Positions 14,363-38,692 of a stretch of DNA of 64,000 bases are shown one piece after another. How positions within the stretch are numbered: position 1 is the stretch's first letter; each line of letters opens with the position of its first letter. Source of the stretch: Diadema antillarum (Eukaryota). The notes below the pieces were generated by a model. It did no database searches, had not been told where the DNA came from, and saw only the letters and a list, made by a program, of their open reading frames with translations. Position numbers and translations under genes: made by a program. Location: positions 1,908,436 through 1,972,435 of the forward strand of contig NW_027271016.1 of NCBI RefSeq assembly GCF_040938485.1, given 5' to 3'.

Positions 14363-14515
14363 TCAACCATCAACGATGCGCAAGATGTCAGCGGCGAGTG
14401 AGGAGACGGCGACATCGGCGTGTGAGCTCGCCGTCTGCATCATGACCCGCAGTGCATCGACTAGAACAGCGCCCTCTGCATTCAATCTCTCTGTGTGCTG
14501 GACCTCCGTGGACAC
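14363..14515 (-). CDS. ULK4: ULK4 terminal coding exon; TGA stop at 14363..14365.
   Basis: VSTEVQHTERLNAEGAVLVDALRVMMQTASSHADVAVSSLAADILRIVDG* (human C-terminus: ...LLRALERLAPGSGSFADSAVAPLALEILQAVGH). Acceptor catgcag|. With this exon, total CDS length is 3933 nt, which is in frame. Confidence 0.75.
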   Translation of the reverse strand: MSTEVQHTERLNAEGAVLVDALRVMMQTASSHADVAVSSLAADILRIVDG

Positions 14516-14618
14516 CTGCATGCATATAGAAAGTGGACTAAGTGTTTACGCCATCAGATGCATAATCTCCATTTACCGGGCCTAGATTCTACCTTCCATA
14601 AACTGATCACTGTTTTTT

Positions 14619-14659
<41 letters not shown>

Positions 14660-15039
14660 AACTGTATTCTATTTACAAATTCAAGATGGCTATCATACTT
14701 TATTCTACTTCATCTACATTCAGCAAGGGTATGCATTCTTCACTGAGAAATAGGAAATACGTTGAATATGAAATTGAAGTATAGTCAGTTCGTATCTCGA
14801 AACAGGGAAATCAACCATTGCCTTAGTCACTTAATGAGTGTGGATGGCCACTAGTATCAACTGTGTCATTCCAATATTCGCCATCAGTAGGCCTAAATAC
14901 ATTTCCTTTTTCAGTGATATTCATTCACTTCAATCAAATGATACCACAGATGGCAATTCAATCTGGTATTACTGTACAATGTAACAAATATTCATCATGA
15001 GTCACAGTAACCAGAAAATGTTCTCTTTAGAGTGTAGTA

Positions 15040-15300
15040 TTTTTGCACAGTACATGTACATGCTCAAACTCTACACTAAATCACAAGAACAAATGCATTA
15101 CACAAAACATATATCCATACACAAACATACACACAACCACACTACACCACACACATATCCATACACACACAGACATACACAAACACACTACACCACACAC
15201 ATCTATTGTATACACACACACAAACGAATGCATTACACCACACACTTGGCCATACACACACACACACATACACACACACACACACACAAACTGTACTCAG
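15040..15300. repeat. Imperfect CA-rich microsatellite (~260 bp) immediately 3' of ULK4 exon 25. (GT)n lies at 14618..14660.
   Basis: acacacaaccacactacaccacacacatatccatacacacacagacatacac.... Overlapping ORFs on both strands (poly-HT / poly-CV peptides) are artefacts. Confidence 0.9.
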
Positions 15301-15312
15301 TAGTGCAATCAC

Positions 15313-15519
15313 GGTGTCAGAATGGTCGACACTTGCCACTCTCTTGATGTATCTCAGGATGAGTTTCTGCCGCTTGGCCTCAAAGGTCTTGAGGGCGTGG
15401 GCCAGGGAGGCGCTATTGGAGGAGGAGAAGGAGTTGGGGTATTCCCCTCCGTACAGCTGGCCAATGAGGGACAAGCACTCACAGGCAGACGTGTGTATGT
15501 CCCGGTCTCGGTGACACAG
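15313..15519 (-). CDS. ULK4: ULK4 exon 25. The 3' (low-coordinate) boundary is uncertain.
   Basis: LCHRDRDIHTSACECLSLIGQLYGGEYPNSFSSSNSASLAHALKTFEAKRQKLILRYIKRVASVDHSDT (human: ...SSKCLSILVQLYGGENPDSLSPENVEIFAHLL...KLLLRILRRMITS). Acceptor cacctag|. Donor chosen as acc|gtgatt because it is the only nearby GT that keeps frame; it is a weak site. Confidence 0.6.
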
Positions 15520-16149
15520 CTAGGTGGGAGGAAAACCAAAGGAAGCATGACAGACTAAGTACAGTCAACATCATCTAAAGCCCGCCGCACACTATACGAC
15601 TCACAACTATACGAGTGACAGCCTTTGGATCTGAAATAAAGAAGCATGTTTGTTCTGAGGCTATTGTGAATTATTTCGGATCCAAAGGCTGTCAGTCGCA
15701 TAGTCACGAGTTGTATAGTGTGCGGCAGGCTTATGTCTACCTCATGCAAGTCAAAAAATTGGTGAAGTTGAGGTAAAATTGTACCTCAGATGGATATGAA
15801 TGTGTTAATTCTGTTGTGTAAGTTGACAGATTTTAACCCCTAGTCCTTTTGGACTCGACTTTAGGCAAAGTTGATTGTACATTGTATACCTTGTCAGAAG
15901 GTATCGTACGTCTCATTCCACTATTAGTAACTCAATGTTTTATTGAGTTGCTGTTTATTCACCAGGATGTATACTTCTTTGTTAACCATTTGCGTCTTAA
16001 TGCACTTTGTTGTAACTTGCAAAGCTCTTCTATCTTTTGTCACCATTTGTTTTATTGTTCGTTGACATAGCCATGACATAAGCAAGACAGGCTGACTACT
16101 GTGTAACAACATGAAATTTTCATACATAAAAGATTGCGATGCAGAGGGG

Positions 16150-16580
16150 TTAGGGGATAAGATAGACTTAAAGGGACTGTACAGTACTGGTTGAGGTGGG
16201 GATTCATGTTTTGAACATTCTTAAGTGAGATAATGAGAAACTTCTTATGAAATATGCAAGAGCATGTACAAACATGTAATTTTAAGAAGGATTCAACGTT
16301 TATTTGATGAAAATTGGTTTTCAAATGGCTGAGATATCCGAAAAAGTGATAATAATAAAAGGCGACATGCCACAACTTTATTAGGATCTCTTTGTTTCAC
16401 CTTGTTTTTGGATATCTCAGCCATTTCAAAACCAATTTTCATCAAATAAACTTTTGATACCCCTTAGAATCGCATGCTCTTTGACATCTCATAGAGTGGT
16501 TTCTGAATATCTCGCAAAACGTAAAAAGCTAAATCCTCACCTCGACCAGAACTGTACACACCCTTTAAGTAATTCTTCTT
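16150..16580 (+). repeat. Copy C (3' part) of the same interspersed repeat family as 4100..4870, in the ULK4 intron between exons 24 and 25.
   Basis: gtactggttgaggtgggg...aaatggctgagatatccgaaaaag...ccatttcaaaaccaattttcatcaaataaact is homologous to 4440..4870. Confidence 0.7.
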
Positions 16581-16861
16581 AATGAATAGTTAAATGGGGT
16601 TCATGCTGATTGGCAATGAAAGCATATTGTATAAGCTATCACTTTCATGTACAGATATTTTCGGAAATGAGGAGGTCATGGACATTTTCACTAAATGTTG
16701 TTTACGCGAATCGACAACGAAGCTATGGTAAGTGCACTATTACCCTGGCACATGGTGACATTTTTGTGTATTGTTAAATTTTGCGGTCCAACAGCAATTC
16801 ACAAAATTGCAAAAAATAACTATATCTATTCTTCTGTACAAGTGCCGTCTCCTTCACCTAC

Positions 16862-16960
16862 CAGACGGATGATGATGGACGTATTGTTCACCAGAGTTTT
16901 GTTCATCATCAGCATCTTCTCAGCACCCTGAGTGTCTGCACTTCCCCCTGACTTTTTGGC
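16862..16960 (-). CDS. ULK4: ULK4 exon 24.
   Basis: AKKSGGSADTQGAEKMLMMNKTLVNNTSIIIRL (human: AQKSGSGEDPQAAEDLLLLNRPLTDLISLLIPL). Anchored to ORF 16826..17047(-). Acceptor tttcag|, donor ctg|gtaggt. Confidence 0.85.
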
Positions 16961-17807
16961 CTGAAAGTAAGAAATATTGGGGGAATATTTGTCTACATGC
17001 CATGGAGGAAACAACATAAAAAAGTCACATGTACAGTAATGCAGCATGATGGAAATAGTTTATGGGCAAATGTAAGCTTGTGAAAGATCGCAACTGCTGA
17101 TCTGTAATTTAACAATCATGTTGGAAAAAAGGATTTAAAATTTAATTTGTAGAGGGAGACAAATTGAAGAAACTCACACCTGAACCTTCAACCCTCTGAA
17201 TAAAATCTTTCTTTCAAATGAAATGTCCTAAAACATCTTCATATAAACAAAGGAACATAAGACTCTTCTTTGGTGTTCAGGCAGAATATTACCTTATGGT
17301 TATCAATTTAGCTAAAGGGGATAGGCTGTACCCAAAACTCATATCCAGATACCTTATTTCTAAATCTTAATCAGGTCATCACCTCAATGCAAATTTCTTG
17401 AAACTGAGCAAAATTCTAAAATTGAAACACAAACTTTACAAGGGGGGAATGAAAATGATCAATAGACACATGTTATCATCCTCAATCATGTGGTAAATGC
17501 CAATTCAAATCAAAAGTTTAAACCTTCAAATTATGCACAGCCCTGTGAAGAACGTGATACGACAGAAAAAGAATAAGTGACTATTAACAGACCAATCATT
17601 GAATCATGAATGAAGATTTCTGCAAACTTGTGTGAAATTTTCCATAAATTCCCAGAACAAGCTCTAAATATGCACTGGTTACACAATCTTACATCATCTT
17701 TAAAGCAATGATTTAAAGTGACTAGATAAAAAATGAAAAAAAAAATTGTCCTCAATCTTGCCCAAGACAAGCCCCTCCCCCCCAATCTTCTTCCCATCTC
17801 CTCTAAG

Positions 17808-18350
17808 GGTGTGTTTATGCTCAATTTGCGAAGGCAGAATCAGCGTTTTGAAAGGCTGATTCAAAATGCTGATTCAAAACGCCGTTCATGGGAGGACTGT
17901 TTATGCTCACTTTCTTCGAGCCTTGGAAAGAGCGTTTGCGATTGCTTCGCTGACCTTAGCAGAGGCAGGTCAAATTGGGGCGTGCGCTGCGATCGGTGGC
18001 CTGGCCTGGGAGAGCAGCTGGGAAAGACATGCGTATGCACAGTACATGGGAAAACTGCACAGGCCAGGGTAGCTGGCTGGCCGGGCACGCTATTTTTTCA
18101 CATGAACCGGAAAGGCGTTTAGATGCCGTCACTCTAAACGTGTTTAGAAACGCTGTTGCGTTCATGCTTCCCCGTCAAACGTGATTAGTCAGAAACGCTG
18201 ATCGTAAACGTACCTTTTTTGTGCATTTTGGATCGGCGTTTTGAATCAGCGTTTCTATCGAAATGAGCATGAACGTAACAGCGTTTTGCACTAATCACGT
18301 TTCAAAAGCCTGAATTTGGCCCCCAAAATGGAAGCATAAACGCACCCTAA
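17808..18350. mobile_element. Candidate MITE or DNA-transposon remnant (~540 bp) with imperfect terminal inverted repeats (gtttatgct...gattcaaaacgcc motifs at both ends), in a ULK4 intron next to exon 23.
   Basis: 17808..17885 is partially reverse-complementary to 18230..18350. It contains internal short inverted repeats of cgctgattcaaaacg. Confidence 0.4.
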
Positions 18351-18393
18351 ATCCTCCTCCCCCCAAATAAAAAACATTTCAATTGAGTCTTAC

Positions 18394-18563
18394 ATGGAGC
18401 ACGTTCCTGACGATGCTGGCAAGGTGCTTGAGGAGGCAGTGGAGGAGGTCCAAGAGTCCAGTGATGAGGAGGTTCAGGGCCTTGGAGTCCACCTTACCCT
18501 CCTCGGCACCAGGGTACATCCGTTGGATGTCTTCAAATAGGATGCTCACGTGGTCCTGGATGC
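18394..18563 (-). CDS. ULK4: ULK4 exon 23.
   Basis: (G)IQDHVSILFEDIQRMYPGAEEGKVDSKALNLLITGLLDLLHCLLKHLASIVRNVLH. Anchored to ORF 18379..18585(-). Acceptor gtgcag|, donor cat|gtaaga. Confidence 0.85.
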
Positions 18564-18936
18564 CTGCACAGTGATGCATGATCATCCAACAAAATTAAGA
18601 AATTCCAATAAAAAGGTTTTGCAAATGGAATACATATCACTTTTATTTCATTATAAAGCAGGAGAAATTGCTAATTTTCTTTAAATTTACATTTATTGAA
18701 ATTTCATCCTCCAGTAAGTAGAATTGGACAAAGAGTTTTATCTTGTACCCAATAATTGACTAAAATGAGTTTTGCTTGACCAATGTTTTGTCCGATTTTA
18801 TCAGTAACAGTAAAGTGTTTTGAAAGTATTGTTATCATTGCATCAAAAGACTCAAAGAGGCATTCCAAAAATGGTGGCTGTGTATTGTAATGATTTTTAA
18901 GTTCACCACGAGAAACTGCATACATGTGGGTCTTAC

Positions 18937-19091
18937 CTTGGTTATACAACTCCTGTAAATCAGTGTCGGCATCCGCTATGACGCAGTTGAGAATAGAGAT
19001 GACATAACGTACGGTGCTACACGTGGGACTATTACGGTGGTCAATCAACACCTGGAATAGCACAGCAACCAGCTCCAGCTCCTCGAGTTTT
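18937..19091 (-). CDS. ULK4: ULK4 exon 22. The acceptor choice is less certain.
   Basis: (R)KLEELELVAVLFQVLIDHRNSPTCSTVRYVISILNCVIADADTDLQELYNQ (human: ...LIPLIFEVTLEHQES...ELLYEQG). Acceptor taken as tgctgaag| (AAG); an alternative is cgag| 9 nt downstream. Donor g|gtaaga. Confidence 0.7.
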
Positions 19092-19592
19092 CTTCAGCAT
19101 GAAAGAAAAGAATACGATCAAACATACAAAAGGGCTTCAGTATGGAAGAAATAAATAGATAAGATACATATTGACATCCTGTTTTCAACAATAAAACAAA
19201 TCTTAACTTAACCAGTTAAAGATGAGTTTCGAGAATACTTGGGCAAGTGTCTATGGGAAATGCGTGTCATAGCAAACTCAGTCCGTCCTCAACAGGTTAA
19301 TATATGTTACAATGCAAAAATGCTTTGTTTCTATGAAACCAGAACTCGTAGGCCACTAACTCCCATTCACTGGGATGTGCAGTTGTTGTTGTTTTTTGTT
19401 TGTTTTTTGTCACTTCACTATCAAAAACACTGTTGAAGTAAGGTCTAACAGATTTGGTGCACTGGTATCATAGGTACAGTATCACAATTTCCAAATGGCT
19501 AGTGCAATGGTTTAATGGCAAACATTCTATAAAGGTCCTAGGCAAGCACTCGTGATGAGTGATAGGTCTGCCCCGCCCTGACCTCCCCTCAC

Positions 19593-19821
19593 CTGATGAA
19601 GGCTGGACTGGTCTCGATGAGGGCCAGCATGAGCTTGAGGCCGTAGAGTGGCAGCGGGTCGGCGTCCAGCAGCAGCCGACTCAGGTGGGGCAGGGTCTGT
19701 GCCGTCACCTCGGCCAGCAGCTGGGGGTTGGTGACGGCCCCGTCCTCCGTCAGGTTGTCGTGGTTCAGGAACAGGCACATGATCTCGGCGAACAGGCGCA
19801 CGCAGAACATGCGGGTCTCAT
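19593..19821 (-). CDS. ULK4: ULK4 exon 21 (GC-rich).
   Basis: (D)ETRMFCVRLFAEIMCLFLNHDNLTEDGAVTNPQLLAEVTAQTLPHLSRLLLDADPLPLYGLKLMLALIETSPAFI(R). Anchored to ORF 19589..19810(-). Donor ag|gtgagg. Confidence 0.85.
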
Positions 19822-20467
19822 CTACGCACCCGTGAGAGGAAGAGCATGAGAGAAGAGGGGGAAATGAAAATGAAGAAAAGTCATATTAAAGACATGTTAA
19901 CTCCTTGTATCCCAAATCTCTTGGCAAATAAATACATGTTTGATGCTAATCCTTTATCAGTATGTGTGAATTCAGATTGTGAGTTCCTACGAACCGTAAA
20001 CATATTGCAAACAGTACACCACAGTGGCAAGTTTTGTAAGTACTCGTCAGAGAAAATGTACATCAAAGCTGTTTGCTCTCCTAAACTGACTCACAATCCT
20101 CCTTTTTTTCATCAGTGTACAGCATGAGCTAAACAGGTTCAAGTGAGCAATGGGAATTGTAGATAGATTTATATTCTTTTTGTACCACATCACAGATTTG
20201 AACTGCAATCTGGGAAAGCACTTTATGAACACAGTAATCATGAAATGTTTTTGATTTTACTCAGTTTTACCACTGACTTGCTACCCATCATTCCTGCTGG
20301 TCACCAGTGCACCAAGGGGGTTGAGGATGATATACCAAAGACCCTATTGAAGAAGAAATAGGCCTTATTAATCCATTCCACACTAAATTCTGAAATCCAC
20401 ATATACTTAATACACAGGCCACCAGGTTCCCGTATGGAACTGGTTAAAAAGATGACTTGCTACCCAC

Positions 20468-20614
20468 CATTCCTGCTGGCCACCAGTGCAGCCAGGGGGT
20501 TGAGGATGCTGTCAATGACCTCCACATGATGGTCCATGAGGAGGGCTGGGTGCTGGGCCACCGCCTCTAGGATGGACAGGATGACGTTGTTGAACTCCAC
20601 GATGGCCAGCATGC
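20468..20614 (-). CDS. ULK4: ULK4 exon 20.
   Basis: (G)MLAIVEFNNVILSILEAVAQHPALLMDHHVEVIDSILNPLAALVASRN. Anchored to ORF 20460..20669(-). Acceptor ccgcag|, donor g|gtgggt. Confidence 0.85.
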
Positions 20615-21630
20615 CTGCGGGTGAATGGGTGGGTGTGGTCGATGACGTGCAAGGCGGGTTTAAATACAAGGTAGGTTACAACTCTCAGCAAGTTACAGCT
20701 CATCATATGAACGGCAGACCTCCCCATCCATCATTAATGTCACACTTGCACGACTTAGTAAATATCATGATAAACATGGAAGGGGGGGGCATTGTTAAAT
20801 TTCAAGTTCATCATTCTCTCCTCTTTCATTGTATTACTCTTTCTCTCTGGTTGATAGCATCATGTGAGTAGTTGTGCAATTCTGATGTTACCCTCAGATA
20901 TAAACTGTAATGCCTTTGATCAATTATCAACTGACGAGTGACGTTTATACCATGGTATTTACATTACAGAAGTATATTGTGTGTAATGAACATTACTGAA
21001 TTTGTAAAAAATAACCATTATGTGTCATACCACATATGTATATGCCACACACACAGAACAAATAAATCATATCAAATCAAAGCAAATTCATATCCATAGC
21101 TCACGTGGCCTTTCAAATCCTAAATCTCTATGAAAACACCATCAATGCCTCATCTCAACCCTTAGCCCATCAAGTTCTGGGAGAATTTTATGGCTCAAAT
21201 TATTTTCATGTTATCATTAAACTGGCATCACTGAATTTCATGGCATATCTTACACTGAAGGCAGATCATACAGAACTTGCTAAATTGGTAAACTGTGCAC
21301 AAAGTTATAAAGATATTGACGAGAATTTGCCAACTTAAGAGAGAAACCTGAACTCTAAGATTCTACAGTGTTGCCAATTTAAGAGTAACTTAAAAAAAAG
21401 AAATGGAATTAAAGATGGTTTTGAAAATTGTGCAACAGAAGCAAATAATTACCTATCAACAAGAAAGGGTTCAGCAAATTTATTTTGCACTCCCTCCTGA
21501 AACACTAGCAATAAATAACAAAGATTACAATAAACAGACACAGTACTAAACTACAGAAATGTTTGTTTGGTGTTTTTTTTTGGATCGATTGATGAATTGA
21601 ATCATGATGTGTTCCTAAAGTTTAACTCAC

Positions 21631-21739
21631 CTACAGCAGGCTCAATATTTGTCTCGCCACTGTCCATGGACTGGACATGTTTTAGAAGGGCTCCAATGTT
21701 TGCTAGGAACTTCTCCCCAACCACCCTTGGTCGGAACAC
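21631..21739 (-). CDS. ULK4: ULK4 exon 19.
   Basis: VFRPRVVGEKFLANIGALLKHVQSMDSGETNIEPAV (human: VFRPQVVTEEFLFSYGTILSHIKSVDSGETNIDGAIG). Acceptor atcag|, donor g|gtgagt. Confidence 0.85.
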
Positions 21740-22159
21740 CTGATGGTCACAGAGAGAGAGAGAGAAAACAAAAACAAAAACATGTTAAGAATTCAAGTCA
21801 TGAGGTATTACCTCTATTAGTATGTGTTAGGCTAATGGATGTTTAAATGAATGTGTGCTGCATCTGCATTGTGGAGTACACTCATTCATGAATATTCATG
21901 GCTTGTTTTACATGCCTATGGTCAGAATCATGTGTGAGTGGTAGTTTAAAAGTGAGCAGTTCCACTAAAATTCTGACCTCATGCACGGAGTACCGGTGCA
22001 GTAGTGTACACTCATAAAGGAATATTCATGGCTGCTGTTTTACACAGCTTCGGTCAGAATAAAACTTATCATTACCACCAAAAAATGGAACCACTACCAC
22101 TACCAAACCTACTACCACTGCCATTATTCTCCTTACCACTCCTGCCAAACCTACCACAT

Positions 22160-23387
22160 ACCTGATTGGTGATCAGATGGACAGCAAGAGGTACATGGAG
22201 CACGCCGTGTCTCATTACCACCATTAACTATCACAACAACCACTACTAACACTACTACCACAGTCTACTATCAACACAGCCACAGTAACAAGGAGCAGGC
22301 TACATCTCTATGTCACCACCATTAACCATCACAACAACCACTACCACTACTAACACAACTACCACAGTACTATCATCCCCCTACCACCACTATCATACAA
22401 CACCTAAAAAGAATGTAGCTATCCGATTGGTCGCTTGCCCATCACATGACATTTAGATAAAAGTACCATCGCACACTGTGGCCTGTGCAATTTTGTTTGA
22501 GCAAAAATGGATAGTGCAAGGCTGATGACACCAATTTCCATTGACTCCTGTGCTTAAATCACAATTAACTTGAAGTTTTTGTTCGAATGCACGGCTCAGG
22601 TTACGTATCGTTACCATCATTATCATCATATTAACCACTACCTCTACCAACACCACTACCACTACTATCATCCTTCCACCATCACTACTAACACTCTCCT
22701 ATGTACATCCCCTGCCACACTCACTACATACCTGACTGGTGATGAGATGGAGAGCCACAGAAACAAGGAGAAAGCTACGTCTCTATGTCATCACCATAAA
22801 CCATCACAACAACCATTACCACTACTATCATCCTTCCACCACCACTACTATCCCCCTCCTACCACCCCTGCCAAAACCTCCACATACCTGACTGGTGATC
22901 AGATAGATAGCTAGAGAAATAGCAAGGAGCAGGCTATCTCTCTATGGCACCACTATCAACCATCACAACAACCACTACCACTACCAACACGACTACCACT
23001 ACTATCCTCCTCCTACCACCACTACAATCCCCCTCTTACCACCCCTGCCACACTCATCACATACCTGACTAGAGATCAAATGGAGAGCCAGAGAAACAAA
23101 GGGCAAGCTACATCTCATCACCAACATTACCACTGCAACAATGCAAAAGCCACTACCACTATTATCATCCTCCCACCACCATTACTATCCCCCTCCTACC
23201 ACCCCTGCTACCACACCTCCACATACTGTACCTGACTGGTGATCAGATAGACAGCTAGAGAAACAAGGAGCAGGCTATCTCTCTGTGGCACCACCATTAA
23301 CCATCACAACAACTACTACCACTACTATCAGCCTCCCACCACCACTACTATCACCCTCCTACATCCCCTACCACACCCACTACATAC
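22160..23387 (-). repeat. Tandem array of about five units (~170 bp each, plus one more distant copy at about 22160). Every unit begins, on the gene strand, with a degenerate copy of the 3' end of ULK4 exon 18 together with its GT donor. The rest of each unit is ACCACTACC-type low complexity.
   Basis: tacctgactggtgat(c/g)agat(a/g)ga(c/g)agc... recurs at about 22168, 22728, 22888, 23057, 23230 and 23388. The last is the real exon-18 3' end (reverse complement ...HLITSQ|gtatg). Confidence 0.8.
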
Positions 23388-23509
23388 CTGACTGGTGATG
23401 AGATGGAGAGCCAGAGACACGAGAGGCAGGCTGCTTTTCAGCTGCTTGGCCTGCACGGTGGAGGGATGTTTGCGGCCGGAGACGGCTGCCAGGCTGCTCT
23501 CCGCATCAC
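23388..23509 (-). CDS. ULK4: ULK4 exon 18.
   Basis: (G)DAESSLAAVSGRKHPSTVQAKQLKSSLPLVSLALHLITSQ (human: DILNSLANVSGRKHPSTVQVKQLKLCLPLMPVVLHLVTSQ). Anchored to ORF 23328..23564(-). Donor cag|gtatgt. Confidence 0.9.
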
Positions 23510-23567
23510 CTGCCATGAATAGGAAAAACACTGTACCTAAGACACTGTCTGCAAAGGCCTGCAATTA

Positions 23568-23946
23568 TAAAGCCCCAGTCACATAGACATGCCGGATCAA
23601 CTCGGATCTGATCCGGAGTGATCCGGGGAGAGATCCGTGTTGACGCCTTGGGCATCCTTGGACATCCGGGAGGCCAACAAGGCAACTTTTGGAGGTCAAA
23701 AACATCCGGCATCATTCCGGGACTGCTACGTTGACAGAGAAATCCAGGATGGTCTATGTGGCCGCGATGTAGATGCCATGTAAATGCCATGCTGTTCCGG
23801 CAGTATCCTTGTAGCTGCCATGTTGATACCGTGTGTACAGTCATCAATGCTCCTCGATGCTCCATCCAGGGTGAAACTATCATGGAACTCCCCGGATCAT
23901 CGTGTAGATCCTTGAGGATCCATGTTTATATGTGACTGGGGCTTTA
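23568..23946. mobile_element. MITE-like element (~380 bp) with 17-bp terminal inverted repeats aaagccccagtcacata ... tatgtgactggggcttt, in the ULK4 intron between exons 17 and 18.
   Basis: Perfect 17-bp TIRs read directly. The internal sequence is non-coding; ORF 23506..23883 is spurious. Confidence 0.6.
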
Positions 23947-24294
23947 GGTGATCAAAAGTTGTTTTACCTTCACACATTCGATTATTGCTGTTCAGGATTC
24001 ATTCCTACCTGGCTGCATGTCAGTTGTTTTTGTTTTTTTTTCACTCACGGTCACCAGTGTCTCTAGTTGGTGTTCATTTCTCAAGTGACTGGACATCAAT
24101 AAAACCTTATCTACACATTCATTTTGTTCCTTAGGATAAAAAAAAATCTCCCCCCCCCCTTCTCCATCCCCATTATCAGAATCTACAGCTAGATATTTTA
24201 AAATCAGCAGGTATTTCATATCACTGTTTTGAATGCATAACCCTTGCACAGATGAGCAAAACTAACAGAGTAAGCAAAGAGAGTGGCCACATAC

Positions 24295-24434
24295 CTAGGA
24301 TTTGTGGCAGCAAGTTGACCAGGTGGTCAGAGAGGACGGTCAGGCACTGGTCCATGTACTTCCACTGGGCGCGGCCCTCCCCCTTGCCCTGGGAGATCTG
24401 CTGCCGGATGTCACGCTCCATGTACGTGATGAGT
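24295..24434 (-). CDS. ULK4: ULK4 exon 17.
   Basis: (R)LITYMERDIRQQISQGKGEGRAQWKYMDQCLTVLSDHLVNLLPQIL(G). Anchored to ORF 24221..24724(-). Acceptor ggcag|, donor g|gtatgt. Confidence 0.85.
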
Positions 24435-24463
24435 CTGCCATGGGAGGTGTGGATGCAATGTAG

Positions 24464-24960
24464 ATGGTTAAGAATCCATTTTCTGTAATAAGTACTACCA
24501 CTAATGCCATCATAAACAATACTTCTGCTCCTGTTATTGCTACTTCTTTCACTACAGCAAAGCCAACAGCAACAACTACTATTACTGACTACTGCTACCA
24601 CTACTACTATAATCAATATCACTACAACTACCTCTACTCTAACTACTACCACAACAACCATACTACTACCACTACAACGTAACCACTTGTGACTGCTACT
24701 ACTATTTGCTACTATTACTACCACTACTTCTACTACTACTAAAGTTTTACTACCACTACTACTACTACTACTTCTACTACTACTACTACTACTACTACTA
24801 CTATTTTACAGCTACTACTAGTACTACAAACTTCTACTACTACTACTACTATACTACTGCTACTACTATTTAACTACTACTACTACTATTACTACTACCA
24901 TTAACACTATCATTATCAAAACTAATGCCTCTACTTTTATCACTTCTACAATCATCACTA
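24464..24960. repeat. (ACTACT)/(ACTACC)n-rich low-complexity tract (~500 bp) next to ULK4 exon 17.
   Basis: Runs of actactactactac. ORFs 24221..24724 and 24464..24682 are partly artefacts of this tract. Confidence 0.8.
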
Positions 24961-25189
24961 TTACCACTACTTCTCCGTCTACTACTACAATCATACAATG
25001 CTGTTTTGTATGCCTATTCTTGACAATTGAATAAAACTGTCTCCTTTCTCCATGACTGAATGTACAATGACATCTAAAAACTAGAAATGTCGCTATGGCA
25101 ACTGGTATGCCTCCGCCATAATGCATGATTCTCCCAATAAGTGTATAGTAAAATGTCTTCACAATGTGTGATGACAGTTTCACATAAAA

Positions 25190-25790
25190 GTGAAATTGTA
25201 ACATTTTCACCTGGCCTTTGACCTTTTGACCTTTGACCTTATGACATGAAACTCTCTCTGGAGAAATCTTTACGCAGTAGTACATGTCTACACTAAGTTT
25301 CAAAAAAATACCTTTGGGCATTGCATAGATATGGGGGAAAATGCAACATTTTTAGCATTTGACCTTGACCTTTTGACATTTAACCTCTGCCAATTTCACT
25401 AAAAAAACTAATTGCCCCATCATACTTCATCCTTGGAACAAGTTTGGTGAAAGTTGCTTCATCCAGTTTTGAGTTATCACGTAAACAGATAAATTTTAGG
25501 ATTTGACCTTGATCTTTGACCTTTGACCTCTCTCTGATTTCACTCAGAAAACTAATCAAGTAATTGTCCCATCATACATCATCCTTGGACAAAGTTTGGT
25601 GAAATTTGCTGGATCTATTCTTGAGTTATCGCATAAACGGACACAATTTCATGATTTGACCTTGACCTTTGACCTTGGCCTTCAGCTGATTTCACCCATC
25701 GCATAAACGAATGCGGACGGATGTACGGACGGACGGACAACCCGAAAACATAATGCCTCCGGCACCACTTCGTGGCAGAGGCATAAAAAA
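25190..25790 (+). repeat. Tandem repeats (~130-bp unit, about 4 units), each containing clustered TGACCT direct repeats (tttgaccttgaccttttgac / gaccttgatctttgacctttgacct). A homologous array lies inverted at about 60640..61150.
   Basis: Repeated unit ...atttgaccttgaccttttgacatttaacctct...aattgccccatcatacttcatccttggaacaagtttggtgaaa...gttatcacgtaaacag... Adjacent shared flank gtcgctatggcaactggtatgcctccgccataatgcat (25090..25130) matches the reverse complement of 61310..61345. Confidence 0.7.
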
Positions 25791-28700
25791 ATAATTTTGC
25801 ATCCAAAGATTACAGTTCAAAACTTGTTGAATATATATTCAATGCAGTGGTGTTGCAATAATGTTAGCTCCAGGAAGGAAGTTTTACTTCTCCTGGCAAG
25901 CTGCTCATGTCAGCTCAGAGTCAGTTATTCCACAAAAGTTGAAGGAAAGAAAGAAAGAAAGCAAGAGAAGGACAGAGAGGGAGGGATACAGAGAGAGGAA
26001 AGTGAAAGAGAGGAAGGGATGAAGAGACTCCACTTTTGTGTATGTATGGTTTCTTTGACTTAAAGGCAATCGCTCGTCGCAGGCGATTCGCAGCTCAGTA
26101 GAAAAGCACGACAAGCTGCTCCTCCCGGTATTGTACCCCCGTACGTACCGAATGCCGAACACGACGCTACGCAGCGCACCAGCGAAAACCAGATGGGGCA
26201 TGAGAGCCGTGCGAGCCGTCCACTGTAATTTCAACATGGACGCCCGAATACCTACCGAATGGGGCCGAATGGGTGCACGCACAAAACCGCACAACAGCCA
26301 TGTGCATGAAAATCTCTCCTACGGGTCCCCGTCGCGACACAACAGTAGAGCTGTGTGGTGTACATATGTACGTATCTGGCTGCAGTCTCTGTTTATTTGC
26401 ACTATGGTGCCAATTTCAGCAATCTAAGCAATAATATTTTAAAATGTCTGAAAATATTATATAACAATATTTTAAATCATTCATATATTATGTTCTTTAA
26501 TATTTGGTATTTATAAATATGCTTTGATGAAGAAATATTAAAACTCTAAACTTCATGTATAGCAAGTTGCAATGCTCATGGCCATATGGCGGGTTGTTTT
26601 GATCTCATTGGCAATTGTCTGCTGCGTCAGCTGTGTTACAGTATGTTGGGCCGGATCGGAACATAACAAAGTTGGTATAAAGTCGTCGGTACCGGTATGT
26701 CAATATCAATAATGTGTGTGGTATGCGTGTACTGTTTCGGATTAGCCTTGGCTTTGGTTTAGTAATGAAACCTCACAATGGAGATCAAAACAGCCGTCCA
26801 ACTCGAGTAAAACGTATCTACTTGTTTGACGCTATCGACGAGTGGAGAACGCAGAGAGACGTGTTCTTAGCATGCTTAGGACAGGGAGGTTTCCTCTCAC
26901 CTCCCTGCTTAGGACAAGTAAGAGACCAGTGGCAGAGGGGGAAGCTTCAGCGTCAGCGTGCCGATGAAAAATTTGCTTTCCACTTGCTGGAGTTGCATGA
27001 ACAGTTTTGCAGGAATTTAGAATGTGCAAATTCGTGTTACGGCATGCACGGTGGAATTGTAATGCCACAGCTTACGCCAATCAAGCAACCCCAGCTGACC
27101 AAGTCAACAACTTCAAGGAATCCAGATCCAGATGATGTGTAAGTAACGTTAGAAGTCTATTACATGAATCAATGATTGAAGTGGAATGACTTTTTCTAAT
27201 ATATCTTTAACTGCTAGGGCCTTTGCGTTTCATCGACAAGTAGGCCTATTTTTCTATGTATAATTCCGCGAAAAACTTCTCTAAGTTCTCATTTATGTCA
27301 AATTATGATAACGCCGTAATCGAAATGACATTTGCTGGGTCAGTTTATCGCTTCTTAAAAACTGACCCAGCAGTAGGCAGCAAATGTCATTAGTCAGGGA
27401 ATCGCAAGTAGTGGTAAGATTTTTGTCATCACAGTATTGAGAATTTAAAGTATTTCATGTGCAAATGTAGAATCTAGATAGATACAGAGAGGTCACTTTC
27501 CTGAGCAGCTAGCGTCAACAATCCAGGTTAAATTTGCATAGCCAGATTTCATGGCTACGATTCAAATACAGTTTGTCCCCATTGATTTAACTGTATAGCA
27601 AAGTCTCCTCTTTCATATTTAGGGGCCCTACATTTTAAGTTTGGTTAAGGAATTTTGATAAAGATTGTAATTTTCATAAGCTTGGCAAAAGTTTCAGGCA
27701 TCTATGTTGCATTTATAGTCAAACTTCCAATGCATTTGGTCCAATAATTTGAAACCAAATTCAAGTGATCCAGTGAAGTGTACATCTTTTCATGTGAATT
27801 TCTACAAGTATGTTGAAATGTAAATTCTGAAGAAAAAAAAATTGATCCTTTACAGTTGAAATTCGTTAAAGTTTGGTTACACCGACAGTGTCAGGTCAGT
27901 GGTAGTAACTACAGAGTTACAGTAGTGTACGTACAATACCCTTGTACGTGAAAGTTACAGTTTTATTTACCTTCACATCTTCATATAGGAGTGTCTAATA
28001 GGGATGTTGATTGGTGTGGAAGTTGTTGATGAACAACAGTTCATAAGAATCCATTGTTTTAATTCTAATACAGATATTGGTCATATGAACCTATCAGTTT
28101 GTAACATGCTAATATGTACAGGTATGAGCTTCATCAAGTACGATTAATTGGTATCCGTGGCACATCCCTTATTTGTTGATCAAAGGTACGCCTCTGATTG
28201 GTATTTTAATCAGTGTTTGGTAGAAAGCTAACCCATTACAATGGCTTTGCGATGTTACACTGAGTTGACTATGGACAAAGGTCTACTGTCCGCGATTTTC
28301 ATTAATTTGTAGGGCATTTTTCACACATAACCTCAAATACTGATACCTGTGATAGGTTTATTTATAATGGTTATCCTTCACACTGTTTGTTGCTAGACAA
28401 TAGTGTTCTGTTTGTTTGTGTAAGAGGGAGATAGACAATAATTTCTTTATGCTCCTGTCTGAAGAAGGCATTACATCTTATTTGTCATGTACTTATCTAT
28501 GAGTTTTAATGTTCACTTTGTGTGTGTGTGTGTCTTTTTTTTAAAGATTATTCACACCAGGCTAAGCTGACAGAACTATAACTGTGAGTTTACAAACTGT
28601 ACCTAGTCAAATGAAAGGGTTTCGGCATTGCTTCTTGCATATAGTATATTCCAGGCAGGTGATACAACGCTCACCTTCTTCATATCAGTTAGTAAAACAA

Positions 28701-29758
28701 TGAAGAGTGCAAAAATACTGCATAAATGTGCAGTGCAACTGTGGCCGTTGGCCGTTGGCCCTGCACGGGCACAGTCGCTTCCCCGTCCTGAATTTATGTA
28801 CACACGCCAGGGCAAGTACATGATACAGGCAGGGTCTCCGACCCAATCGTCCGCGTTCAGAATAGACAACTCGGCGGTAATATCCGCTACCCATGACGAT
28901 GTGTCATCGTCCATGATGGCCACCCTATCTATTATAATGTGGTCTGCACTCACTAATCTGATCTGATCTGATGATTACAGTATAGTTGACGAGTGACGAC
29001 GATCGACGATGCGATGAAGAGAATGCGTAGTCGTACGAAGTATACGCAGCTAGCTACTAGCTCATGCGAACATCACTCACATTACACAAAACGTACTGTC
29101 CCGCGCTCAGCAAGCGATCGCGAGCAATCGAGATACTATAGCGCGATACATTGCTTTAGGGATGTCTTGCGCACACACATATTTCGCTTCGTAGCAACTT
29201 CGGAAGCGAGTTTACGTGCTGCCGCCCGCGGCTGAAATATGTCCATGTATCCTCGCGACTGGGTGTCTTTAATTATTCATATGAATATCTTTTGAAGTGT
29301 CTATTTTGTCAGGACCCCATGGCAGAATGGCAGTATCATTGTTGATTCAGCTGAATGGGCAATTCCTCTGTATTCATGTATACTGTAAAAGTGGAAATTT
29401 TCACGCATTTCGCGCAACCAGAAACTAGCGTGAAAATAAAAGCACGCGAATATTTTTGCTTGCTATATGTTCCTGTGTGTGATGTCTTTATTCCGCAGAA
29501 TTAAAAACACGCGAATCTCTTCTTATCCAGCCAAGCGCGAAAAATTAGTCGCGCGAAAATATCCACTTTCACAGTATTTTGTTCTCTTTTCATACAATGC
29601 CTTTGCACATATTCTATCTCAGGATTATTTGTTTGTTTGTTTGTTTGTTTGTTTGTTTATACTACTATTCTTTGTATTACTCTGCTTTCCATTTATGGAA
29701 AATGGAAATTACTAAATAGTAATAATGATAAAAAAACAAAACAAAACTTTTGTCTTAC

Positions 29759-29886
29759 CTGGCCTGACAGCAGGTCATGATCATCTCTGGGCTGCTCTTG
29801 ATGATCTCGAGGACGACCAGGAGTGCCTTGGCACGGATGAGGACAGACGGGCTCTCCACCAGCTTCATAATGTGGAGACAGAACTC
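29759..29886 (-). CDS. ULK4: ULK4 exon 16.
   Basis: EFCLHIMKLVESPSVLIRAKALLVVLEIIKSSPEMIMTCCQA(R) (human: FVSTIIRLLDSPSTCIRAKAFLVLLYIL...LLSCQAR). Acceptor cacacag|, donor ag|gtaaga. Confidence 0.85.
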
Positions 29887-30780
29887 CTGTGTGTGTGAGA
29901 CAGGGAAAGGTGGTATTCCTGGTGTCTTGAGAATTCATGTGAACTAACTGCAGTAGGCTCCTTTAGGGATTCTTCACTTTACTGTGCAAACTCTGGACAA
30001 ATTTTGCAAATGGTAGTATGCTCTTCTGTACAATGTGCACAGGAAACCTCAATTATGTACTCAAAATGTACTCAAATGCAACCCCCCCCCCTCCAAAAAA
30101 AAGAAAAAGTTGACACAAACTTCAAAGGGACCACATAATCTTTACTGAAAAGTGTGGCAAGAACTCTATAGAATTTGCATGTGTGTGTCAATTTGATTAA
30201 TAAACTGATGTGTCACAAAGGTTACATCACATTTGAGCATACATAAAGTTATAAGACAAAGGAACAATTTTGCATGTGTTTTCCACGTAGGTCTCAGAAT
30301 TAAGCATTTCACAAATTCATATGTACATGAGTAATTGTCTTTAATGCCGATTCTCATACATGCATCGTTTGTTCTCCCGACAGTACGTGTGGCCCAATCT
30401 TGATCATCAAAACGCACAACATAGAGCAGCCCCTAGTGAAAACTCAACACCTTTGTCATCACAAAGAATAAAGAGCAAGCCAAAACAGGAATTTTATCCA
30501 AAGAAGGGGCTTGAAATATGCAGTACCACTTGTGGACTCAACACTAAAACCAAGACACAAAGTCAGCTCTGAGTGTCTTGTACGGATATGATGCAATATT
30601 ACACTGTCTCTACTTCTCTATCTCTGTGCATGTGAACATGAATGCATTTTTCTGTAGCTTAACACTCTGTGTGCTCTGAGTGCTGATTGGCACAGAAGAC
30701 CCAAAAGTATTGGACACACCGTCAAAAGTCCCCAGCACAGACAGGGTTAAACCATTGCGGAAGGAATTTGTTCATTTTAC

Positions 30781-30963
30781 CCTGTCCTGAGTGATGCGCT
30801 GAATGTGCGAGCCTTCGGTCAAGAGGTGGGCAAACATGGTGACTAGGGCCTGCAGGACACGGCTGATGTTGACCGCAAGCCCCTCCAGGACCTTGGGCAG
30901 GCCCACCTTGTCGATGATGCTCTGGAAGATGGTAACGGAATGCCGGCAGATTCTCGACAGAGC
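30781..30963 (-). CDS. ULK4: ULK4 exon 15.
   Basis: ALSRICRHSVTIFQSIIDKVGLPKVLEGLAVNISRVLQALVTMFAHLLTEGSHIQRITQDR (human: ALCRITRHSPTAFQNVIEKVGL...LQRLIQEK). Donor agg|gtaaaa. Confidence 0.85.
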
Positions 30964-31537
30964 CTGTCAAGTTTTAAACAAAAAAGAGAGAACAGTTGGT
31001 GTCTCAATGTCCGTAGAGTCTCAATTTCAGTTTTATCTATAGTGTGAACTAGATACAAATCCAAGCCTTCATTTGTCTTCATCTAGGTGCCAACATCTTA
31101 TTTCCTGTGACGGCATCATTTCATGATTTCTCCTGTATGAGCAACACCTACAGGTACCCATTCTCAAATATTCTACTCATAGTCTGCTTCTCAAAAATTC
31201 CCTTTGCATACTATATTGTTTACAGTCATAGCCTAGCTAAGAAAAAATTATGGTAACACTACATATGCAGTTGTAGTACATGTAGTTGTCCTCTGGGCAA
31301 CCTACTCCACTAGAAAAAAGTAAATATTTGTACAGTGCAAACAAAATTATCGCGCTTAATGAAAGTACACCCCTCTCAACAATGTATAAAAATGCTCTAA
31401 TAACACAAAAGATTCACAATCTTTCATGTCAAGAAGATTCAAATGAGATCATATTGACTTTCTGAATGTCTCCAAAGACAAAATAGATTGATAAATTGTC
31501 ACTCTGTGTGTAAATTAAGAGGCAGGAAACCACTCAC

Positions 31538-31699
31538 CGAGATGGAGCAGATCTTGGGAGTGTCCGCCATGGAGTGAGTGAAGAGATGCCAGAGCTGGTG
31601 TCCGACCTCCCCGGTGGCCAGCTTCTCACCATGGGCACTGTTTGTGGCTGCCACGTTCTCCACCACCTTGGCAGCAAAGTGCTGAACAAAGGCATCCTC
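31538..31699 (-). CDS. ULK4: ULK4 exon 14.
   Basis: EDAFVQHFAAKVVENVAATNSAHGEKLATGEVGHQLWHLFTHSMADTPKICSIS (human: EERVVNHMAAKIIENVCTTFS...GEIGPILWYLFRHSTADS...). Acceptor cccag|, donor tcg|gtgagt. Confidence 0.85.
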
Positions 31700-32148
31700 C
31701 TGGGTAACAAAAAAATGATAAGAAGATCATTTCTCCACAAATGCTGCATAGTAAATTCTACATGAGATACTCCCTACATACTGTGTTAAACTTCAACTTG
31801 TACTCATCAGTGATGACTCAGTTCAGTAAATCATGTACTTTCACTTTGCACAATGTCTTCGCCCATTTGACGTACTTTCACCGAGTACTTAACCAACTGC
31901 TCACTAACTTGTGCATAATTTGCAATTTGCACAAAAAGCCCCCAAATTAGATAATACTTCTTGCGTTGAACTGCAAAAATGTCAGTTGCTTTGAATGCCT
32001 TCATATACACAATAATTATATTGGATAAGCTGACTAAACTGCTTTGGGATTCAACAAACACCTGCTTTAGCATGGTTGTACTTTACCATCATGTTGGGTA
32101 CACACAAATGAAAATGAGAATAGATAATTGTGCAAATAATTTGCTCAC

Positions 32149-32334
32149 CCCTTCTCGCAGACAGCGCGATATCATGGTGTAGGTGAGGGTGGGCACCACG
32201 GTCGGCTCCGATGTTCCATCCTGGTCGTGGGTGGCCGCCAGGAAGAGTAGTTCACCAACTGCGGGGACAACGCTCTGCTTCAGCTTGGAGTTGCGGTTGT
32301 TGTCCCTGAGGACCTCTGTTAGAGCTGTGATCAC
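32149..32334 (-). CDS. ULK4: ULK4 exon 13 (HEAT/ARM region).
   Basis: VITALTEVLRDNNRNSKLKQSVVPAVGELLFLAATHDQDG...TYTMISRCLREG (human: AIVLLTELIRENFRNSKLKQCLLPTLGELIYLVATQ...VLMRCLREG). Anchored to ORF 32089..32358(-). Confidence 0.9.
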
Positions 32335-33149
32335 CTGTGGTAGAAAAAGAAAAACCATACACCCTTACATACATGCACACAGAATCATTATAATTAACTA
32401 TAATATATATATGAATATACTTTGCCTTGAGAGTTTCTGGTTAAAACTATCAGCACTGAGGACCAAAGTGTTAACAAGAAGCTCGCAATTACGCAGAGTA
32501 CACTGTACATTTGCTTTATATTTTGGATTTAAAAAAAAATTAAATAAAAGAAGGAAAAAGATGAGGTAAGAAGTCACACGGCAAATGCAGTATAGTGGAG
32601 GGATCCTACAGTGATGATACGAAGCAGGGAGCAATACCACAATTGCTTGTGACATTTCACAAAGTGATGGTATAAAGCAGCATGTGATGCCAGAACTGCT
32701 TTGTGACATCTTTTCACAAATAGTGTACTATTTGAAAATATATGTCTGTTAATGTAGGTATCTGTGTTAGAAAGGTGTCACTCATATGCTACTAACATCT
32801 ACTGAAATCAGAGGCTAACTATTCCATGGTCTATTCATCATGAACACCAGTCACATACCCATTATTTTTCATAACAAAGTGTCCTTGAAAGGATTTTGCT
32901 CACATGAAAATATGAAGACTGCTAAAAGCATTCGTTTGTACATGAATTCCCTTATCTAAGTGCTTGAAAAAAGAAAGAAAGCATCCTGACAATATGACAC
33001 TATGATTTATGAGCAGTCACACCCAAGTTTGCTGGTTTTTCTTTGTCAGATGCATGTTATTTCATAACTTATGTGTATTCCTGACATAAACAACACAAAC
33101 AACAAATGAAAATAGCCCAAATTTGAGGAGAAACCAACACATTCGCTAC

Positions 33150-33228
33150 CTCAGTAAATGGCAGGTCTTGAGGAAGTTCGTCCAGGCTCTGCGCCATCAG
33201 TCCCAATACTCTGGCAGAGCGGCATCGG
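33150..33228 (-). CDS. ULK4: ULK4 exon 12.
   Basis: (I)RCRSARVLGLMAQSLDELPQDLPFTE (human: IRAKVAHVIGLLASHTAELQENTPVVE). Acceptor gtttgcag|, donor gag|gtagcg. Confidence 0.7.
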
Positions 33229-34159
33229 CTGCAAACAAACGGACACTCGAAAAGTGATTTTATGTACGTGATAACCTACAAATGTACATGTACAAAGTAA
33301 AATCTTATGAGTTCAATGGCAAAAACTTGACTGAAATTGGATGAAAAATACGGAAGTTGTGAAATTTTGAAGAATGATAAAAATTCAATGTCCCCCATCC
33401 CCGGCCTGATTAGGGTTTAAATATGTATATGGCAAACAGAGCGCACAGAGGTATTAAGCCACAGTTAAAGCTGTATGGTTCTAAAAGCGCCAATCATCTT
33501 TTCCTTCATGGCTTCTTGGTTCTGCAGATGTAGTTTGCAGGATGGCAAGTGGTCTTATTTCACAACGAAAAAATGTTGAATGACGTGTTGTTTCATTACT
33601 AAACTTTCCTTTCTTTCTTCTCTCTCCCTCTCCCCCGTCTCTTCTGATGGGATATGACAAGACTATGCTTGATATCTACCTGTTTATGTACTAAATATAA
33701 ATTAATCACTGCTATCAGAATACTAGACTTGAAATGGGCAAGCCAATTGTGAGCAGGGCTGAGGCACACGCACACACACACACATTACAAACTCGAAGGA
33801 TGTAAATCAACTTGGGGATAAATGCAAGGGATCTCTGAAGTGATGTAGCTTTTTAAACATGTTATAAATGCAAACAAAGGGAAAACTGACCAGACTGACT
33901 GTTTCCAAAGTGGAACATTTTTCTCTGTCTTTCCAATAATCTTTATTTTCTTTCCACTTTTATTTCTTCTTTTTCGAATCTACTATATTTCTCCTCCATG
34001 GCTACGTAGAAATGGTCCGGGTTTATAGGCCCACCATCTGAGTATGAAAATACCGCGGGTAGGCATCTGGCAAGATACATCAGTTCATAAGAAGAAATCA
34101 ATACTTTAAAAAACTCTGAAATCTCAGAGTGTGCCACATTACATCCAAACAATGCTCAC

Positions 34160-34206
34160 ATTTCAAGTGGCTGAGATGGTTTCAGGAGCTGTAGCAGGCA
34201 CGGTAT
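34160..34206 (-). CDS. ULK4: ULK4 exon 11 (a small 47-nt exon).
   Basis: IPCLLQLLKPSQPLE(I) (human: SPLFQLLIQHLRIAPNWD). Acceptor ttggcag|, donor at|gtgagc. Needed to keep phase between exons 10 and 12. Confidence 0.6.
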
Positions 34207-34889
34207 CTGCCAAAGAGAAGAAAGACAAATGTAACATGGATGAACAAGTGTAACACGTGACAACAGTTGTAAGTTGTGGAAAGAAGTAACACGGTGTTAC
34301 CTCATCACAAATTTTAAGGAATACCTGGTGTTACCTCATCACAAATTTTAAGGAATACCCTTTTTCATCTAAACCCACAATACAGTTCACCTGTACTGAA
34401 TATCAATTGAAAATATCACTTGAAAATCAAATATCAGACTGGATCTACAGTAAGATTCTATAAAAGGAAGTGGACTACACAAAAATTAACTAATTCTTTT
34501 GCAGCAATGGGTCTAGTGATTGGTGACATATCTTAATGTAGCATATGTTCACCACACAAGAAGTGTGGTTAGAATTTGACTTAAAACTTTGAGTGAAAAT
34601 GAAACACAAAATAATATCCCTTATGGCACGAAGAGCAATAGTTGCAGCTTTTACACTAACATTCGTATGTAAAGCGCTCCAACAACCCTGATATCAGTGT
34701 ATGTTTCTGCGAAGGTCACCTCAAAGATGGTCTTGCCTTACAAAAGGTCAACATAAAAATCCTAGAGGCAACATCTAAAAGATTAAAGTCCCATGAATAT
34801 GATCAGCCAATCAGTTAAGTATGCATACCATGTATCCTAGTAAGGCTTACATCATGGCACTTGCATACCTACAAGCTCCTAATGCTTCA

Positions 34890-35110: not shown

Positions 35111-35253
35111 TAAAGAAAGGAGAAGACAGCCAATTTCCAAATTATTCAACTATTGTATATGCATGGCATGGAAAGATGGCAAAAGAAAGTTACTTACTAT
35201 GCATGATCAATACCGACAAATAAGCTGAATGATTCTCCACTACTAACACCTAC

Positions 35254-38689: not shown

Positions 38690-38692
38690 AAA

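Follow-up and report, generated by a model that had tools for sequence, protein, structure and literature searches.

A tandem array that repeats the exon end and splice donor of ULK4 within the adjoining intron

Introduction

Intron 7 of human F7 contains a variable number tandem repeat, a minisatellite with a 37-bp unit that begins with a monomer across the boundary between exon 7 and IVS7 (Borensztajn et al. 2006, PMC1557585). In total, five to nine donors face a single acceptor in this intron. The F7 pseudo-sites are identical and functional, yet experiments demonstrated that they go unused as long as the upstream site is intact (PMC1557585). The authentic donor is also reported to be the only one used in LMNB2 (100-bp monomer, 10-15 repeats) and in intron 4 of PDGF (81-bp monomer, 16-18 repeats); in intron 2 of IFI6 (6-16) and intron 13 of CBS, two proximal pseudo-sites are used in addition (PMC1557585). 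A different outcome of local duplication has been described in Drosophila, where introns were gained when an exonic segment with a proto-splice site was duplicated in tandem (Lehmann et al. 2010, PMC2891723).

Here, we describe a tandem array in an intron of ULK4 as a further case of the phenomenon already known from human F7, IFI6, CBS, LMNB2 and PDGF. The array is located in a 64-kb window, which is the whole stretch of DNA that was analyzed, and its host organism is probably an echinoderm. Our search of the literature on ULK4 intronic tandem repeats found nothing relevant. The study follows up an original prediction that a ULK4 exon end and its splice donor had been amplified as about five to six copies in the downstream intron. 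Positions are those of the window, array features are on the minus strand unless otherwise stated, and a slash marks a splice junction.

Results

Host gene and intron

The minus strand of the window carries the host gene ULK4, and the array adjoins a HEAT-domain exon of this gene. The peptide of the exon, (G)DAESSLAAVSGRKHPSTVQAKQLKSSLPLVSLALHLITSQ, matches the Pfam family PF23606 (HEAT_ULK4) at positions 8-47 with an E-value of 4e-10 and a score of 39.9 bits, above the curated cut-off of 27 bits. Using Mustela ULK4 and Antedon ULK4-like as tblastn queries, the gene was mapped as a collinear series on the minus strand (45526..14369), with Met1 at 45526 and the C-terminus near 14369. ULK4 exon 1 shares 86% identity with Lytechinus pictus ULK4-like, which makes an echinoderm the probable host and a relative of the sea urchins a possible one. 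A two-exon peptide obtained 102 matches among 1.84 billion representative proteins; its full-length matches include an NCBI-named ULK4 from Mustela lutreola, and NCBI-named ULK4-like proteins were matched in Antedon mediterranea, Tubulanus and Symsagittifera. The representative-protein search also recovered P0014, the closest relative found, which was missed by a word-index protein search with the 41-residue exon; the latter search has incomplete recall and returned two distant single-exon calls. The gene, its strand and the exon end ITSQ/GT had all been read correctly in the original prediction. In the tblastn map, the focal exon ranks 16th among the coding exons; two gaps in this map may conceal one to three more, and the number "exon 18" that had been assigned to the exon is plausible.

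The authentic exon (23388..23509, minus strand), which is supported by the Pfam match and by tblastn with Mustela and Antedon ULK4, consists of 122 nt, begins in phase 1 and ends in phase 0. It is preceded by the acceptor ...TTCATGGCAG/ at 23510 and terminates on the gene strand with ...ATCACCAGTCAG/GTATGT, such that the intron opens with /GTATGTAGTGGG. The authentic 5' splice site, CAG/GTATGT, occupies 23382..23390 with the G of GT at 23387, and the junction is common to the orthologous exons of three relatives, the contigs L001, L002 and L003. The host intron spans 1,648 nt (23387..21740) and ends with the acceptor ...CCATCAG/, and the next exon starts at 21739. This next ULK4 exon (21631..21739, minus strand; 109 nt, VFRPRVVGEKFLANIGALLKHVQSMDSGETNIEPAV) has the donor TAG/GTGAGT and was located in tblastn searches that used the corresponding L002 exon, P0004 and P0007 as queries. 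The last ~320 nt of the intron (21740..22059) do not belong to the array; a ~130-bp local duplication and a (CT)n polypyrimidine tract are found here, and CATCAG/ at 21740 is the acceptor.

Detection of the tandem repeat

The repeat is evident from short motifs of the exon end. On the plus strand, the motif TACCTGACTGGTGAT occurs exactly at 22729, 22885, 23229 and 23385, with one mismatch at 22159 and with two mismatches at 23062; its reverse complement, the 15-mer ATCACCAGTCAGGTA, accordingly has four exact sites and two sites with one or two mismatches. When up to three mismatches were allowed, the 18-mer ATCACCAGTCAGGTATGT produced six minus-strand matches in the 64-kb window, and all of them lie within 22156..23399. 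Dinucleotide shuffles contained a mean of 0.07 such matches, and none reached six. Five of the six matches are intronic and downstream of the real exon end. Matches of the 18-mer in metagenomes, at nine loci that share only 18-23 nt with the window, were dismissed as chance.

The repeat periods identified by TRF are 159, 160 and 177 bp (scores 411-549, 2.4-3.0 copies per row), and the units of the array are the strongest tandem repeats of the window. A separate repeat search resolved families D1-D6 with a start-to-start spacing of 156-177 in the same register as TRF. The units are thus arranged head to tail within the intron, and their length of 156-177 bp is at or above the top of the classical minisatellite range. 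A blastn search of the unit against the window found no copy outside the intron/exon locus; an (ACT)n tract at 24749-24804 resembles the unit weakly, through low-complexity sequence. Similar (AGT)n sequence is also present in the neighbouring intron at 24575-24898. These results place the repeats within a few bases of the positions proposed by the original prediction and confirm the tandem amplification of the exon end and donor directly after the true donor. The tandem-repeat and self-comparison analyses reveal both a clear periodicity and a sharing between units that extends beyond their low-complexity part.

Anatomy of the array

The whole array extends over 22060..23440 and consists, in the direction of the gene, of the real exon end (E), four pseudo-exon ends (U1-U4), a 221-nt interruption, a partial unit (P), a distal pseudo-exon end (U5) and a GGT-rich tail. 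The array and its interruption span ~80% of the 1,648-nt intron, and the repeat units alone amount to ~1,100 nt. As judged from alignment of the best-kept copies (U1-U3), a unit starts with the final 45-53 nt of the exon, continues through the donor and includes ~105-120 nt of GGT/AGT-rich intron. Local alignment to the exon indicates that the exon portion common to the units corresponds to ~15-17 codons, ...SLPLVSLALHLITSQ, and that the intronic copies cover exon positions 71/79-123; the alignments of U4 and U5 cover the last 36 and 29 nt of the exon, respectively. The shared exon part is therefore considerably longer than the ITSQ codons to which it had been ascribed. The low-complexity remainder of the units is ACC/ACT-rich on the plus strand, as had been proposed, which corresponds to GGT/AGT-rich sequence on the gene strand.

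The first unit holds the exon 3' end, with 23388 as the last exon base, and the authentic 5' splice site. U1 (23226..23276, exon-like at 23232-23276) aligns to exon positions 79-123 and has a weakened donor, CAG/GTACAG. U2 (23059..23117, exon-like at 23065-23117) reads ATCTCTAGTCAG/GTATGT, and U3 (22882..22935, exon-like at 22888-22935) contains CTCTAG/ at 22911; the donor 9-mer of both units is identical to the real one. In U4 (22726..22767, exon-like at 22732-22767), no base of the last 26 nt or of the donor differs from the real exon end. The array is then interrupted at 22395..22615 by a unique 221-nt segment (strand unassigned), which has no second copy in the window. P (22278..22392) is a partial unit that retains the upstream exon-like part and the GGT-rich part, with 88.8% identity to U3 over 107 nt, and a ~60-nt internal deletion has removed its pseudo-donor. 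U5 (22156..22190, exon-like at 22162-22190), located 421 nt upstream of the acceptor, reads ATCACCAATCAG/GTATGT and carries the same donor 9-mer as the real site, and the GGT-rich tail on the minus strand ends the array at ~22060.

The expected copy number requires revision: five intronic donor-bearing copies are present, but the copy assigned to 23385-23388 is the real exon end, and the donor-less P is an additional partial copy. Likewise, the proposal that every copy starts with the exon end and GTA(T/C) does not hold for all units: U2 and U5 deviate in the sequence that precedes GTATGT and U1 has the weakened CAG/GTACAG. A search of Rfam families returned no match at E<=1 in the intron or in the 221-nt insert. 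With respect to coding potential, neither strand of the array contains an ORF longer than 114 aa, and those present are low-complexity. Exact look-ups of the exon read-through ORF in its 62-aa and 78-aa versions matched no record.

Divergence and decay

The pairwise identity of whole units is 57-79%, and the units differ in length. The best segment pairs are 86-91% identical, and the array lacks the near-identical monomers of a recently homogenised repeat. The similarity between units is mosaic: the exon-like parts of U1 and U3 share 91% identity, the intron-like parts of E and U3 share 86% identity, and the donor window of U4 is identical to that of E. No clean multi-unit period emerged from the unit comparisons, and the mosaic relationships suggest that duplication or conversion took place repeatedly, instead of producing a single clean higher-order repeat. 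Signs of decay include one weakened donor, one deleted donor, two donors with adjacent point changes and the 221-nt interruption. The low unit identity, combined with the differences in length, is the signature of an old, decaying array. Thus, the array is probably old and decayed, and the description "unstable minisatellite" in the original prediction is not supported.

Conservation of the junction and direction of duplication

The exon end ...LHL(I or V)TSQ and its phase-0 junction are conserved in Mustela ULK4, Antedon ULK4-like and the single-exon contigs L001-L003, and the sequence across the junction, TSQ/(V or I)FR, is common to the mammalian and crinoid ULK4 proteins and these contigs. 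The exon of L003, the closest relative found, is 79% identical to that of the window at the nucleotide level; L003 aligns to the window in the two exons only, its intron being not alignable. The L003 intron opens with GTAAGTCATACAG... and continues as pyrimidine-rich sequence, and its first 315 nt, which is all that is visible, contain no copy of the exon end. The comparison with related species agrees with a lineage-specific repeat. In L002, the next exon is only ~320 nt downstream.

Given that mammals, a crinoid and further animals share both the exon end and the position of the intron, and that the array is not seen in the closest relative found (315 nt of intron visible), sequence comparison establishes the exon end as ancestral and the array as derived. 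The junction was duplicated into its own intron, and not the other way round. The available relatives are too distant to date the array. Moreover, the junction position is ancestral and the intron does not occupy a novel position, which excludes an intron gain of the Rogers or Drosophila type via a proto-splice site; the array is not an intron-gain event.

Pseudo-donors and their predicted products

The donor 9-mer CAGGTATGT is identical at the real site (23387) and at 23064, 22887, 22731 and 22161, which represent four of the five intronic copies, and the authentic donor is thus followed downstream by repeated 5' pseudo-sites. The remaining copy, U1, has the donor CAGGTACAG with a score of 4.8, compared to 9.8 for the real donor CAGGTATGT in a crude 5' splice site position weight matrix (PWM). 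The PWMs for 5' and 3' splice sites are approximate and are not trained models, the former being based on published vertebrate frequencies.

U1 and U3 have acquired an acceptor-like site through a G-to-A change that converts CTCTGG to CTCTAG, 23 nt upstream of the pseudo-donor. In the crude PWM, CTCTAG/ of U1 at 23255 has the highest 3' splice site-like score of the exon-to-exon region (11.5) and that of U3 reaches 9.3, compared to 10.3 and 9.7 for the two real acceptors. U3 is therefore by sequence a complete 23-nt pseudo-microexon, with an acceptor-like CTCTAG/ and a donor like the real one. Its inclusion would shift the frame and introduce a stop after three codons. The use of a pseudo-donor would lengthen the exon by 156, 323, 500, 656 or 1,226 nt, and all of these extensions run into the same stop, which is codon 61 of the lengthened exon and lies 20 codons past the start of the intron. 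Because of this early stop, transcripts spliced at any pseudo-donor would be unproductive.

The best-conserved 18-column window among the five intronic copies is located around the pseudo-donor (0.89 versus a mean of 0.75), but a column permutation detected no significant excess of conservation in these copies (p=0.27). There is no statistical case for constraint on the pseudo-donors. No stabilising RNA structure that masks the pseudo-donors was found, as the folding stability of the array is below that of the shuffled sequences (z=+2.46).

Discussion

The ULK4 intron contains a tandem array in which the exon end and its donor are repeatedly embedded. How did the array arise, and what is the fate of the repeated donors? 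We propose, with a probability of roughly three in four, that the array is an old minisatellite, specific to its lineage and by now partly decayed, which starts with a unit across the ULK4 exon-intron boundary and whose pseudo-donors are silent or nearly so. We have high confidence in the structural part of this proposal, namely an origin by tandem duplication, re-duplication and decay. As to the mechanism, we infer that an initial tandem duplication had its breakpoints ~50 nt to the exon side and ~110 nt to the intron side of the junction and that the GGT/AGT microsatellite-like sequence within the unit may have aided it. Re-duplication by unequal exchange or slippage would then have generated one real and at least six intronic copies, and an intron of a few hundred nucleotides would thereby have grown to 1,648 nt. 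Since the first copy is still attached to the rest of the exon and retains the authentic donor, the coding sequence is untouched. During a long subsequent decay, the units would have accumulated substitutions and indels, one donor would have been lost, and the 221-nt segment would have come to interrupt the array.

In terms of splicing, the spliceosome would take the most upstream donor after the acceptor of the exon, and the downstream pseudo-donors would be silent or nearly so. We attribute this silence, with moderate confidence and by analogy to human F7, to a 5'-to-3' choice of donors combined with exon definition. The rules of splice-site pairing in echinoderms may differ from those in mammalian cells, and some leakage from the pseudo-donors is possible, by analogy to IFI6 and CBS. 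Some use of the copies would also agree with the acquired acceptor-like sites and with the donor region being nominally the best conserved of the unit. Nothing points to an effect on the ULK4 protein or to a new mechanism.

The original prediction went further and regarded each copy as a potential cryptic or competing site and possibly as a decoy. By sequence, the copies are indeed potential cryptic donors, given that four of them share the real 9-mer, but the conservation of the pseudo-donors lends no significant support to a competing or decoy function. In its broadest form, this reading holds that the copies serve as competing 5' splice sites, as U1 snRNP decoys or as 23-nt poison microexons (in U1 and U3) and thereby tune ULK4 expression, with a share of the pre-mRNA being channelled into transcripts that contain a stop and are degraded. 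It draws on the retention of the real 9-mer in four pseudo-donors, on the top rank of the donor-proximal window in unit conservation (0.89 versus 0.75) and on the CTCTAG/ scores of 11.5 and 9.3, which are comparable to those of the real acceptors; furthermore, every alternative product stops early, as do those of unproductive-splicing elements, and proximal pseudo-sites are used in the human IFI6 and CBS arrays (PMC1557585). However, the excess of conservation is not significant (p=0.27), and it is also expected because the part of the unit that is not low-complexity aligns better. U1, which has the strongest acceptor-like site, has the weakened donor (4.8), and one copy has no donor. The array is not seen in the 315 nt of intron visible in L003, and the splice-site scores themselves come from approximate, untrained matrices. 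We thus consider a function in splicing unlikely. Its most specific version, a regulated unproductive-splicing module for ULK4 in which U3 functions as a poison microexon or contributes to a U1 snRNP-decoy cluster and the number of units sets the mRNA level, is more doubtful still, and we would be surprised to see it borne out. If it were true, a boundary-spanning repeat would constitute a heritable, copy-number-dependent expression dial in an invertebrate.

The other readings have very little in their favor. Recursive splicing, which had also been suggested, would use the CAG/GTATGT copies as ratchet points to remove the intron stepwise, and AG indeed directly adjoins GT in each copy, downstream of a fairly pyrimidine-rich exon-like segment. 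Described recursive sites are found in introns of tens to hundreds of kilobases, but the ULK4 intron has only 1,648 nt, the CAG/GT copies score 4.5-7.7 as 3' splice sites against 9.7-10.3 for the real acceptors in the crude, approximate PWM, and the sites are not present in the nearest relative L003 (315 nt visible); such a role is highly improbable. The duplication could conversely have run from intron to exon, with a pre-existing intronic or dispersed repeat, either satellite or transposon-borne, supplying the exon 3' end and donor. The unit consists mostly of low-complexity GGT/AGT sequence and resembles the (AGT)n sequence of the neighbouring intron at 24575-24898, in line with this origin. 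However, mammals, a crinoid and L001-L003 have the exon-end peptide and the same exact junction in common but lack the repeat, and the exon-like part of the unit occurs nowhere else in the 64 kb, leaving this direction scarcely credible. Tandem repeats are also error-prone in assembly, and a mis-assembled or inflated repeat might in principle mimic an array. Read duplication would not yield copies that differ by 21-43%, in length and by unit-specific indels, and an array of ~1.3 kb can be spanned by long reads; we assign an assembly artefact a negligible probability.

As an old, decayed minisatellite that begins at its own exon-intron boundary, the ULK4 array fits, by its sequence, the structural definition of a boundary-spanning intronic minisatellite of the F7 IVS7 type. 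As in F7, the first ULK4 unit carries the exon end with the authentic donor, and the pseudo-sites match the real site. The array departs from the classic human cases in four respects: the length of the unit, the amount of exon that it carries, its advanced divergence and its invertebrate host. The F7 unit is 37 bp long with 4 nt of exon, whereas the ULK4 unit is 156-177 bp long with 45-53 nt of exon. The F7 copies are strictly identical and polymorphic in number, whereas the ULK4 copies are 57-79% identical, with one donor weakened and another deleted. In addition, F7 is a mammalian gene in which the choice of donor was tested by experiment, whereas the ULK4 array is known from sequence alone and its host is probably an echinoderm. 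The long monomers of LMNB2 and PDGF are nearer in size to the ULK4 unit, and there too the authentic donor is repeated in the intron. As compared by description, these two arrays have more copies than that of ULK4, and decay and interruption are not described for them in PMC1557585. IFI6 and CBS resemble ULK4 in that the donor is repeated via a boundary-spanning minisatellite, but if their use of pseudo-sites applied to ULK4, the products would be truncated. The Drosophila intron gains (PMC2891723) share with ULK4 a local duplication that includes coding sequence and AG/GT and an exon copy that turned intronic. Unlike those introns, the ULK4 intron is ancestral and was merely lengthened, and the duplicated segment already had a working junction.

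A specialist in splicing or repeats would not be surprised by the ULK4 array. Its value lies in providing a clear natural case outside mammals in which one acceptor faces one real donor and four identical pseudo-donors, in long units with ~50 nt of exon context. It also exemplifies one route to a roughly fivefold growth of an intron, the duplication of the intron's own boundary. In addition, the array could offer a natural test, in echinoderm-type splicing, of the rule derived from F7 that the most upstream donor wins.

Tandem repeats around the array

A long, degenerate (ACT)n microsatellite at 24575-24898 comprises approximately 107 copies with 69% matches and reads (AGT)n on the gene strand. 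Its composition and strand bias are those of the low-complexity sequence in the array (the tandem repeat at 22060..23440 whose units copy the end and splice donor of the focal ULK4 exon, 23509..23388 on the minus strand). The tract sits in the large intron that precedes 24442..24293, the ULK4 exon before the focal one. When a unit was searched against the window with blastn, the sole match outside the array, at 24749-24804, fell inside the tract. The same large intron contains a 152-bp tandem duplication at 25409-25695 (1.9 copies, 83% matches, TRF score of 409), and a perfect 34-bp tandem duplication is located at 34293-34359 (2.0 copies, 100% matches). In the intron directly upstream of the focal exon, TRF identified small tandem repeats with periods of 10-12 at 23615-23667 and 23767-23791, and several short motifs of the GATCCGG/CCGGATC type are observed at 23590-23900.

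The array itself is interrupted between the fourth intronic unit with a donor and the partial, donorless unit at 22278..22392 by a unique 221-nt segment (22395-22615) that is not of low complexity. The segment has no second copy anywhere in the window, no match in Rfam and no obvious target-site duplication. Directly 3' of the array, the same intron carries a second local duplication of approximately 130 bp (21871-21928 and 22001-22060; 80-85% identity), whose sequence is unrelated to the exon-end units.

Protein search and gene affinity

The word-index protein search with the 41-residue focal exon peptide as the query missed P0014, the protein of the closest relative found, which is a cluster representative in the collection searched and differs from the query at just 2 of the 41 exon residues. 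The recall of this search is thus incomplete, which bears on its negative results. An echinoderm source is suggested by exon 1 of ULK4, which exhibits 86% identity to the ULK4-like sequence of Lytechinus pictus. In tblastn, the whole gene extends over 14369-45526 on the minus strand, occupying approximately 31 kb of the window.
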